From Candidatus Nezhaarchaeota archaeon WYZ-LMO8 (lineage in GTDB: Archaea; Thermoproteota; Methanomethylicia; Nezhaarchaeales; WYZ-LMO8): 37,089 nt of DNA. Position numbers and translations under genes: made by a program. The stretch lies in contig QNVF01000009.1 of the NCBI GenBank assembly GCA_004347965.1, positions 1 to 37,089 of the forward strand, written 5' to 3'. The number at the start of each line of letters is the position of its first letter. The stretch's first letter is position 1. This document shows positions 21,070-23,901 of the stretch, piece after piece. Below the pieces are notes generated by a model. It saw nothing but the letters and a program-made list of their open reading frames with translations, was not told where the DNA came from and did not search any database.

Positions 21070-22887
21070 TTGTGCGGAATTTTCGGCTGTACGTCGTTGA
21101 AGGAAGGGGTGTCAAAGCTCATTTACTCCTCGCTTAAGAGGTTAGAATACAGAGGATACGATTCTGTAGGTTTAGCTACAATATGTAATGGACATATCTT
21201 CTTGAAGAAGGATCAAGGGAAGGTAGAGGAAGTAGAGAGAAGATTAAGTCTTAGTGCATTACCTGGAAGGTGTGGGATAGGACATACTCGCTGGGCCACG
21301 CATGGAGCTCCCTCCAAGGAGAATGCACATCCTCTGACGGACTGTGAAGGCAAGGTGGCTGTGGCTCATAACGGCATCATCGAGAACTATTTAGAGTTGC
21401 GTAGCAAGCTAGGGGATTCAGGGCATAAGTTACGTTCTAGAACTGATAGCGAAATAATAGCGCACTTAATTGAGGAACTCCTCAATAAAGGTCTTACACT
21501 AGAAGAGGCTGTTAGGCAAGCAACATTAACGTTAAGGGGGTCATACGCCTTTGCAGTCATCTCGCCACTATGTGAAGATAAGATCGTTTGCGTCAGAATG
21601 GAAAGCCCATTAGTCATAGGTCTCTCACGAGACTATACCTGTCTCTCATCCGATATACCAGCCCTTCCTCCAGATGTGGAGAGCATTATAGTGATGAATG
21701 ATGGGGAGCTTGCTGTACTTACTCCTCACTCCATCGTCATTAGGGACTTGGAGTCTAATCAACAGCTACCACTTAGGATAGTGGCTAAAGAGAGCGTGAC
21801 GTGCCTAGCCGATCGAGGCGGCTTTACTCACTACATGATCAAAGAGATATTTGAGCAACCTCAAGCAGCTCTTAACGTTATCAATGCTCCTCGCTACTAC
21901 ATAGTTAAATTAGCTGAAGAGCTTGTTAAGTCTGATAGGGTTTACTTAATTGGTTGTGGAACATCATATCATGCATGTTTATTTGGCTCCTACGTCCTAC
22001 GCTCAATAGCTGATATTGACGCTCAACCAGTCATCGCATCAGAATTTAGCGAAAGCCACGTCAAGTTGGGGAAGGATGTAGCCATCCTTGCTATATCACA
22101 ATCAGGAGAGACGGCTGATGTACTACAAGTCCTGAGATCTTACGTGAACAAAGATGTTAAACTTCTAGCACTAACCAACGTTATGGGGTCCTCGATAACA
22201 AGGCTTGTATCTTCGTATGTTGGACTCTATGCTGGTCCAGAAATAGGTGTAGCAGCCACTAAAACGTTTATTGCAGAACTTTTAATGCTCACCAGAATAA
22301 GCATAGAAGTAGCTAGAATTAAGGGTGTAAATGTTGATCTCATCTCAGGTGTCGAGAGTATCCTAAGGTCTTCACCAAAGCTGATAGAGAGATCTCTCAC
22401 GCTTAATGAGCCCTTAGCCAAGAGTTTATCCGTTTACTTATCCTTAAAGAATAGTGCCTTCTTCTTAGCAAGAGGAGTAAACATAGTTACAGCCCTTGAG
22501 GGAGCTTTAAAGCTAAAGGAGATAAGCTATATTCACGCTGAAGGCTATCCTGCAGGAGAATCAAAGCATGGGCCCATAGCTCTCGTTGAAGAAGGTTTTC
22601 CATGCATCTTCGTATGTCCTCATGATGAAACTTACTACAAAATACTAGGCAACGTAATGGAGATGAAGGCTAGAGGAGCCTTTGTAATTTCATGCGTCGA
22701 GGAAGGTGATAAAGAAGTTAGAGAGACATCAGATAGGATCTTCGTTCTTCCGAAGATCGAAACTAAGCTTTTAACACCTATACTGCACGTAGTACCGCTT
22801 CAGCTCCTCGCTTATTACACAGCTATTGCTCGAGGTTACGACCCCGATAAACCTCGAAACCTCGCCAAGTCCGTTACAGTCCCTTAG
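21070..22887 (+). CDS. glmS: Glucosamine--fructose-6-phosphate aminotransferase (isomerizing)
   Basis: N-terminal CGIFG, LEYRGYDS, GHTRWATHG, HNGIIEN, SQSGETAD, ATKT, KLKEISY, KHGP, DKPRNLAKSVTV. Confidence 0.97.
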   Translation: MCGIFGCTSLKEGVSKLIYSSLKRLEYRGYDSVGLATICNGHIFLKKDQGKVEEVERRLSLSALPGRCGIGHTRWATHGAPSKENAHPLTDCEGKVAVAHNGIIENYLELRSKLGDSGHKLRSRTDSEIIAHLIEELLNKGLTLEEAVRQATLTLRGSYAFAVISPLCEDKIVCVRMESPLVIGLSRDYTCLSSDIPALPPDVESIIVMNDGELAVLTPHSIVIRDLESNQQLPLRIVAKESVTCLADRGGFTHYMIKEIFEQPQAALNVINAPRYYIVKLAEELVKSDRVYLIGCGTSYHACLFGSYVLRSIADIDAQPVIASEFSESHVKLGKDVAILAISQSGETADVLQVLRSYVNKDVKLLALTNVMGSSITRLVSSYVGLYAGPEIGVAATKTFIAELLMLTRISIEVARIKGVNVDLISGVESILRSSPKLIERSLTLNEPLAKSLSVYLSLKNSAFFLARGVNIVTALEGALKLKEISYIHAEGYPAGESKHGPIALVEEGFPCIFVCPHDETYYKILGNVMEMKARGAFVISCVEEGDKEVRETSDRIFVLPKIETKLLTPILHVVPLQLLAYYTAIARGYDPDKPRNLAKSVTVP

Positions 22888-23901
22888 ATCTTCTAAGATC
22901 TATGGTATCGAAGATGTCAGGCCCCGTGCTTATTATCGTTACGGGCACCTTCAATGTATTCTCTATCTCCTCTATGAACTTCTTAGCTTCACGAGGTAGC
23001 TTATCGTAATCCCTAATCTTTGAAGCTGTAGGGAACAATGTATCTACCCTTGTAAGAGCTATTTGAGTTGCACTATTAGCTAGAACTGCTCTTCTGGCTA
23101 AATCAAAGTTGAAGGGCGCTACCCTTCTCCTTCTTCCAGTTACGGTAGCAACCTCTATAAGCCCTCGCTTTTCGGCCTCCTCCTCTGAGAGCTCACCGAG
23201 AAGCGGTCCTCCACCAACTCTAGTTACATAGGACTTGAAGACGACGATCACTTCATCAACCATCTTTGGCCCTATACCCACCTCGCTGCAGATAGCTGAT
23301 GCAGTCGTATCTCGACTGGTGACGTATGGATAAGTCCCATGATAAAGGGAGAGGTAGTATCCTTGAGTTCCTTCAAGTAATACGTTGTGACCTTGCTGAT
23401 ACGTGTTCCACAATATCATAAGGACGTCGTCTAAATATTCCTCTAACTCCTTCACATCACGAGCAAGCTTAGCCACTCTTCTCACTCTATCAGCCATAGC
23501 TGCTCCAACTCCTTGTCCTGTTGAGCCTATCTTAGAGATCAAGTAAGCATCTTCTCTCTCCTTCTTCACGTGCTCGTCTTCGATTATGGATGCTTGAGGA
23601 TCTATCTTAAGCCTGTCCTTGGCTTTCGTTAGCTCTATCTCTTTCATTAAGACGTCTATCCTAATATTGGCTCCAGCCGCTATGCAGAGTATCGCATTGG
23701 GGTTTACGAACCCGCAAGGTATCATCCTCAACTTGTACTCTACACCATTATAAGTTACAGTATGACCTGCATTGACTGATCCAGTTCTTACGGCTACTCG
23801 AACATCGTCTCTTAATGATAGGTAGGCACAAATTTTTCCTTTTAGGGGGCTAACACCTTTCCCTCGTCTCCAAAGAAGCCTCCAACAACTACTGTTAGCA
23901 A
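22874..23901 (-). CDS. purA: Adenylosuccinate synthetase, intron-split: join(complement 23859..23901, 22874..23841), 336 aa after splicing
   Basis: Exon 1 from TTG at 23901 reads MLTVVVGGFFGDEG. Exon 2, in another frame, reads KGKICAYLS...RTGSVNAGHTV...GSTGQG...EGTQG...GTYPYVTS...TVTGRRRR...STGP. Removing 17 nt gives 1011 nt, fitting the short archaeal PurA. The ORF track sees only 22874..23731. Confidence 0.93.
23842..23858 (-). other. 17-nt BHB/BHL-type intron in purA mRNA (AGGUGUUAGCCCCCUAA)
   Basis: mRNA folds as AGGG-AA|A-GGU(GUUA)GCC-CCCU-AA|A: 4-bp helix AGGG/CCCU, two AAA bulges, 3-bp inner hairpin. Canonical cuts restore GAG GGA AAA GGA AAA (E-G-K-G-K). Confidence 0.88.

Follow-up and report, generated by a model that had tools for sequence, protein, structure and literature searches.

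How can a hot-spring archaeon produce adenylosuccinate synthetase (PurA) from a gene that is interrupted within the codons of its GDEGKGK motif? The window, i.e., the whole 37,089-nt stretch of DNA that was analysed, carries the one purA copy found by a search of the genome (a MAG that is 93% complete). The initial annotation had described a 17-nt insert at 23858..23842 on the minus strand, lying within the purA GDEGKGK codons, and both its sequence and its coordinates are exactly as claimed. Predicted exon 1 (23859..23901, minus strand) comprises a TTG start at 23901-23899, 14 codons in all (MLTVVVGGFFGDEG), and the first base of a Lys codon. The insert itself, a candidate BHB/BHL mini-intron (AGGUGUUAGCCCCCUAA; 23842..23858, minus strand), splits purA between GDEGK and GK, and predicted exon 2 (22874..23841, minus strand) completes that Lys codon with two further bases and continues through 321 codons (GKICAYL...SKGL) to a stop at 22876-22874. 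The minus-strand text across the junction is TTG CTA ACA GTA GTT GTT GGA GGC TTC TTT GGA GAC GAG GGA A / AGGTGTTAGCCCCCTAA / AA GGA AAA ATT TGT GCC, where the slashes mark the insert borders. When read unspliced from the TTG at 23901, it encodes LLTVVVGGFFGDEGKVLAP, 19 residues, and then reaches the TAA at 23844-23842 inside the insert; this translation agrees with the annotated premature stop (UAA) after 19 codons. The rest of the gene had been called undamaged, and so it proved to be: the frame from 23839 to 22877 holds 321 open codons that correspond to Adenylsucc_synt (PF00709; E 2.7e-68 in a Pfam profile search). In an alignment to 2d7u_A, an archaeal PurA structure of 339 aa, residue 1 of exon 2 falls on residue 17. 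Exon 2 alone is thus short by ~16 N-terminal residues, the part that exon 1 encodes. The longest plain ORF at the locus, as seen by ordinary ORF calling, is a 285-aa piece (22874..23731). Homologous purA starts (TTG, ATG, or GTG) and the same exon 1 peptide are present in relatives.

The gene is tightly packed between its neighbours. Upstream lies a gene of the histone-deacetylase family (365 aa, PF00850; 23895..24992, minus strand), and the start of purA shares bases with its stop. A glmS-like gene with GATase and SIS Pfam domains (21070..22887, plus strand) is convergent to purA, and its 3' end overlaps the purA stop region by 14 nt (window 22874-22887). A tRNA search found no tRNA genes within the 37,089-nt window.

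According to the excerpted text of a study of cbf5 introns (Yokobori, 2009; PMC2738675), the archaeal splice motif consists of two 3-nt bulges set 4 bp apart and is cleaved between residues 2 and 3 of each bulge. The purA insert was found to have this arrangement. On the minus strand, AGGG in exon 1 (23861..23864) forms the 5' strand of the central helix (H) and pairs with 23847-23844, the CCCU inside the intron (23844..23847) that forms its 3' strand. The 5' bulge is AAA at 23858..23860, with a predicted cut at 23859/23858, and the 3' bulge or loop is AAA at 23841..23843, with a predicted cut at 23842/23841. Between the bulges, an intronic hairpin (h'; 23848..23857) joins GGU (23857-23855) to GCC (23850-23848) across a GUUA loop. 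All of the pairings listed in the initial annotation, i.e., AGGG/CCCU flanked by AAA/AAA bulges and the GGU/GCC stem with its GUUA loop, do form. Applied to this structure, the cut rule gives 1 + 10 + 4 + 2 = 17 nt for the intron, exactly the piece whose loss restores the P-loop; cuts after bulge residue 2 remove 23858..23842 and leave GDEGKGK. With the exon sequence kept fixed, the same geometry in the frame-restoring register arose 170 times when the 17 nt were shuffled 200,000 times and 386 times among 200,000 random 17-mers.

The motif takes the relaxed (BHL) form, since its 3' site is a loop that no adjacent exon-exon helix closes. Of the elements of the strict hBHBh' motif, h' is present (3 bp in the window) and the adjacent exon-exon helix h is absent. 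Most cbf5 introns also fall within the relaxed class, according to the same excerpts (PMC2738675). The proposal of a more distant outer helix stood in part. The pairing of UUCUU (23877-23873) with AGGAA (23840-23836) exists in the sequence, with five pairs, one of them G.U, after 8 unpaired bases; nothing beyond this existence supports its importance, and it is not separable from plain coding sequence since the same codons occur in intron-less homologs. An unconstrained MFE fold of the 86-nt region recovered the GGU/GCC hairpin and was not unusually stable (z = 0.53), and helix H was missing from it.

To place the insert in context, the purA junction was read in all 55 Methanomethylicia genomes with a purA match, from 62 searched. 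An insert occurs at the same site in 34 of these 55 loci, with lengths of 16, 17, 18, 22, 28, and 30 nt. It is present at all ten loci of the window's own family (f1; 16-18 nt) and at 24 of 26 loci in a second family (f5; 18, 22, 28, or 30 nt), and at none of 19 loci from seven other families. Every one of the 34 inserts fits an intron of 1 + hairpin + 4 + 2 nt with bulges AA/A and AN/A, and helix H has four standard pairs in 33 of them and three in the remaining one (L005, with one A.C). Splicing would yield GDEGKGK in all 34 interrupted homologs, and the PurA frame is kept unspliced in none. Where the insert length is divisible by three, an in-frame TAG interrupts the reading, and at the other lengths a stop falls in or just after the insert, apart from five 28-nt cases in one genus (g20), where it follows 19-27 codons later. 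The hairpin h' extends to as many as 9 contiguous pairs among these relatives.

The register of the motif differs between the two families. Family f1 has an AGGG/CCCU helix, with the cut in GGA A/AA, whereas f5 has GGGG/CCCC (CCCU in genus g16), with the cut in GGG AA/A; the whole motif has slid by one base, tracking the Gly codon, and the position of the insert at the DNA level is ambiguous within the run of A. Many f5 genomes (e.g., L033 and L041) also have a GGCGGC, the GG of VGGFF, that is complementary to a GCCGCC, the AA of KIAAY. Located 14 and 9 nt outside the BHB, these two strings could form a distant closing helix, judging by their complementarity. Two f5 species (L051 of G036 and L053 of G022) are precisely without the purA insert, a pattern that suggests either clean intron loss or gene replacement.

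Covariation was assessed for nine pairs in an f5 alignment of 24 sequences (21 distinct). In this alignment 95.8% of cells were paired, compared with 82.2 ± 1.6 in shuffles, and none of 500 shuffles reached the observed value; the structure was derived from the same sequences, and the relatives are not independent. All five outer hairpin pairs vary on both sides within f5, giving variants such as GGC/GCC, GGGUU/AAUCC, AACAG/CUGUU, and GAUGG/CCAUC. As a control, the pairing partner was slid by 1-3 columns, and the paired fraction was then 45-71%. Helix H itself contributed little covariation because it scarcely varies: it is near-invariant within each family, and three of its four pairs never vary in the f5 test.

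Beyond the class, a pattern for the interrupted junction was run against a 401-genome sample of the phylum, for which the f15 and f5 counts are lower bounds. In family f15, at least 5 of 14 genomes have a purA insert, 20-21 nt long and with a hairpin of the form ACCU../..GGGU; in family f47, both genomes have one, 22 nt long and with a GCCU/AGGC hairpin. Positions of these f15 and f47 matches were confirmed against purA places in 4 of the 7 genomes. Four further pattern matches (G152, G289, G173, and G136) are apparently due to chance. The insert was absent from all 39 readable purA junctions of other archaeal groups; one further locus (L077) is without upstream sequence.

An intron of this type calls for an endonuclease and a ligase, and candidates for both are encoded in the window genome (G000). 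A profile search of the genome returned two EndA paralogs (PF01974), 185 and 178 aa in length. One of them carries the His of what we take to be the catalytic motif, as read by eye, and the other does not. From these motifs, the pair would be of the heteromeric type, with one catalytic and one structural subunit. Only (alpha-beta)2 and epsilon2 endonucleases cut non-canonical introns, according to excerpts of PMC5829648, from which we infer a broad EndA specificity in this genome. The RtcB gene is intact. In addition, aragorn predicted introns in 16 of 40 tRNAs, some merely 11-13 nt in length and some dubious.

We also looked for further interrupted protein genes by a genome-wide scan for a BHB combined with joinable ORFs. 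The first filter gave 7,538 matches and was uninformative. With stems of at least 5 pairs, 289 ORF-joining matches had the 3/3-bulge geometry, compared with 281-345 in six wrong geometries, i.e., no enrichment; with stems of at least 8 pairs and at least 30 codons on both sides, there were 12 matches compared with 2-9. The scan as a whole is therefore not evidence, and the hand-checked candidates alone count. Among the strong-hairpin candidates, four of five were judged real: Pfam placed the two flanks of each in successive stretches of a single family, and conserved motifs reappeared once the intron was taken out. A TnpB/MatE candidate on contig C75 proved to be false when its flanks were checked against Pfam.

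Five genes of the genome besides purA are predicted to contain such introns. In cbf5, a 22-nt intron (contig C1, ~76645-76666; L109:1633-1654; minus strand) has a CCCU/GGGG helix H and AG/A bulges on both sides, and it splits the codon of the catalytic Asp (GTL-D-PKVTG). The aIF2-gamma gene holds a 32-nt intron (contig C77, 23751-23782; L105:2952-2983; plus strand) at DCPGHE/MLMATML, with flanks that match GTP_EFTU 4-80 and 85-187 plus eIF2_C. On the same contig, an aIF5B/IF-2 GTPase gene has a 33-nt intron with a 12-bp hairpin (21331-21363; L105:532-564; plus strand) at ...GAM/TQHIGAS, between matches to GTP_EFTU 4-30 and 60-183. The ribosomal protein S5 gene has one of 29 nt (contig C72, 142-170; L106; plus strand) at QKQTD/AGE, its downstream piece beginning at Ribosomal_S5 position 17. 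Finally, an IF-2B-family gene has a 27-nt intron with a 9-bp palindromic hairpin (contig C35, 6124-6150; L107; plus strand) at THCN/AGALAT, between PF01008 2-114 and 117-280. The aIF2-gamma intron was present in all ten f1 genomes, with compensatory changes, and it was absent from the three other-family loci that were read (f3, f7, and f5). The remaining other-family aIF2-gamma matches have open frames of 413-435 aa, which point to absence there too.

Two regularities were seen among the six interrupted genes of this genome. In each the intron falls within a catalytic or nucleotide-binding motif of high conservation, and in each the first intron base, i.e., the third bulge base, is A. Both the location in motifs and the initial A may reflect an insertion preference or a detection bias.

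Taken together, we consider the 17 nt to be a genuine spliced archaeal mRNA intron in purA, of the cbf5 type, with a probability of roughly 0.9. The initial annotation had named a BHB/BHL-type intron for the archaeal splicing endonuclease, and every sequence-level test that was run supported this assignment. Cleavage and ligation of the purA RNA are what the motif, its register, its conservation and covariation, the enzymes, and the sister introns jointly argue for. In the purA transcript, the exon AGGG would pair with the intron CCCU, and the GGU-GUUA-GCC hairpin would stack on this helix, so as to present two A-rich 3-nt bulges 4 bp apart in a relaxed bulge-helix-bulge (BHL). The heteromeric splicing endonuclease would then cut after the second base of each bulge, at 23859/23858 and 23842/23841, and RtcB would join the exons to give GAG GGA A-AA GGA AAA. 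The joined mRNA would encode a 336-aa PurA with an intact GTP-binding/catalytic P-loop, GDEGKGK; without splicing, a 19-residue peptide alone would result.

Translational bypassing could also, in principle, carry a ribosome over the insert: peptidyl-tRNA-Lys would leave the AAG at 23859-23857 and land on the AAA at 23842-23840, skipping 17 nt. The window and the rest of f1 do have Lys triplets at both the take-off and the landing position, with a hairpin and a stop in the gap between them. However, in f5 the landing triplet, just before the second Gly codon, is AAA at 3 of 24 loci; the other 21 have AGA, ACA, or ATA and thus no matched landing codon. Both the exon-intron helix, AGGG/CCCU in one family and GGGG/CCCC in the other, and the fixed 3-4-3 spacing follow from the BHB model, whereas hopping predicts neither; five other genes of the genome have the BHB build without matched codons. 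We therefore regard bypassing as very improbable.

A dead or dying gene deserves about as little credence. On this account a 17-nt insertion inactivated purA and the organism salvages purines; the plain purA ORF is indeed broken, and a second copy could have remained unassembled in a MAG that is 93% complete. A decaying gene is difficult to reconcile with an interruption that persists at a single site across two families (34 species) and recurs in two more. The 321 downstream codons are open and 55-91% identical, exon 1 retains its start and the GGFFGDEG codons, and insert length changes always by hairpin length, the hairpin always being paired.

Programmed ribosomal frameshifting across the insert fares worse still, and we give it almost no weight. 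An insert of 17 nt does displace the frame (-1/+2) and does contain a hairpin, but the lengths of 16, 17, 18, 22, 28, and 30 nt span all three residues modulo 3 and the 18- and 30-nt inserts hold an in-frame TAG. There is no conservation of a slippery site, and a frameshifted P-loop would keep extra residues.

Evidence from sequencing reads was sought in a relative with RNA runs, an oil-field f5 species (G019) whose purA locus (L102) has a homologous 28-nt intron at L102:383-410. One raw RNA run (X21) had 0 reads on this locus. Contigs of two other RNA runs (X6 and X7) contained no exon joint and have a coverage hole at L102:245-404, which takes in exon 1 and most of the intron. The match of the X7 contig ends exactly at L102:411, the predicted first base of exon 2, with 6 unaligned letters left over. 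The X6 contig is 98% identical to G019 in exon 2, and its match begins at L102:405, so that places 405-410 correspond to the last six bases of the insert; upstream of 405 it carries 25 letters that are unlike the G019 intron. This contig, in reaching into the insert, may represent unspliced RNA or DNA in the library, or it may come from a strain whose intron is different and longer, or be chimeric. A contig from a DNA run is colinear with the G019 insert, with 0 differences. An artefact of assembly or sequencing, like a strain-level indel in the MAG, can be dismissed for practical purposes: the origin of the window in a metagenome assembly is all that speaks for it, whereas the insert recurs in ten independently assembled f1 genomes and five Nezhaarchaeales MAG records, and its homolog in G019 is matched by the DNA-run contig.

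If the purA insert is an intron of the kind proposed, its conservation with covariation across at least four families, along with at least five more interrupted protein genes, implies that tRNA-type splicing of mRNA is regular in these archaea. Standard gene callers would mis-annotate such essential genes, making them look broken or truncated, and so distort the metabolic reconstruction of uncultured relatives of methanogens. A wider and more tentative reading, which we hold to be possible rather than probable, is that purA is one visible case from a repertoire of BHB mini-introns, spread over Methanomethylicia and neighbouring Thermoproteota, which in essential genes favour the best-conserved codons for catalysis or nucleotide binding. 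The sites found are the purA P-loop, the catalytic Asp of cbf5, DCPGHE of aIF2-gamma, the G domain of aIF5B, S5, and THCN/AGALAT of the IF-2B family. Such a repertoire, if real, would imply an active spread of introns into mRNAs, e.g., by reverse splicing and retro-copying or by endonuclease-guided insertion at sites that can form the helix; alternatively, the output of translation and nucleotide synthesis would be coupled to tRNA-splicing capacity. Cultures seem to exist of members of f5, the family in which the insert is common, judging by the oil-field origin of the runs and excerpts of PMC12244365 (Methanosuratincola), and the question of splicing is therefore directly testable. Methanonezhaarchaeia, too, are reported to have been cultivated (PMC12700198).

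Several known systems resemble the purA insert to different degrees. In T4 gene 60, translation bypasses a short stretch that lies between matched codons and holds both a hairpin and a stop. The purA genes of the window and f1, and these alone, have matched codons around a gap of that kind; most f5 homologs are without them, and hopping leaves the BHB geometry unexplained. Splicing of the eukaryotic HAC1/XBP1 mRNA by IRE1 and RtcB, which is stress-regulated, is alike in that a short mRNA intron is removed independently of the spliceosome by an endonuclease and an RtcB-type ligase, with a change of reading frame. It differs in that the IRE1 endonuclease and its recognition motif are unrelated and in being stress-regulated, a form of control of which purA shows no known sign.

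The introns at non-canonical positions of archaeal tRNAs, for which the HBh'/BHL nomenclature is reportedly that of Marck and Grosjean (2003), are closer. They have the same recognition element, are comparably small, and would presumably be handled by the same enzymes. The host RNA of the purA insert differs from theirs in being an mRNA without a tRNA body, and its exon helix strand is constrained by codons (GAG GGA or GAG GGG).

The closest likeness is to the cbf5 pre-mRNA introns of Desulfurococcales and Sulfolobales, which are said to have been studied by Watanabe in 2002 and Yoshinari in 2006. As described in excerpts of PMC2738675, the cbf5 introns are likewise short inserts in a protein gene (from 16 nt) with a relaxed BHB and the same cut position, and their hosts have a hetero-oligomeric splicing endonuclease. 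They also resemble the purA insert in their patchy gain and loss among relatives and in lying at a catalytic-motif codon. In the excerpts of that study, cbf5 is the sole archaeal gene with confirmed mRNA splicing, introns in other protein genes being predicted only (PMC2738675). A search of the openly available full-text literature found, among the papers listed, neither an intron in purA (adenylosuccinate synthetase) nor mRNA introns in Methanomethylicia. For cbf5, both cDNA and cleavage in vitro have demonstrated splicing, whereas the purA intron is predicted from sequence. Furthermore, cbf5 encodes an RNA-modification enzyme and purA a metabolic one, and the purA insert occurs in Methanomethylicia, including Nezhaarchaeales, and in two further families. 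What is new here is the gene and the lineages; the kind, a cbf5-type intron, is already known.
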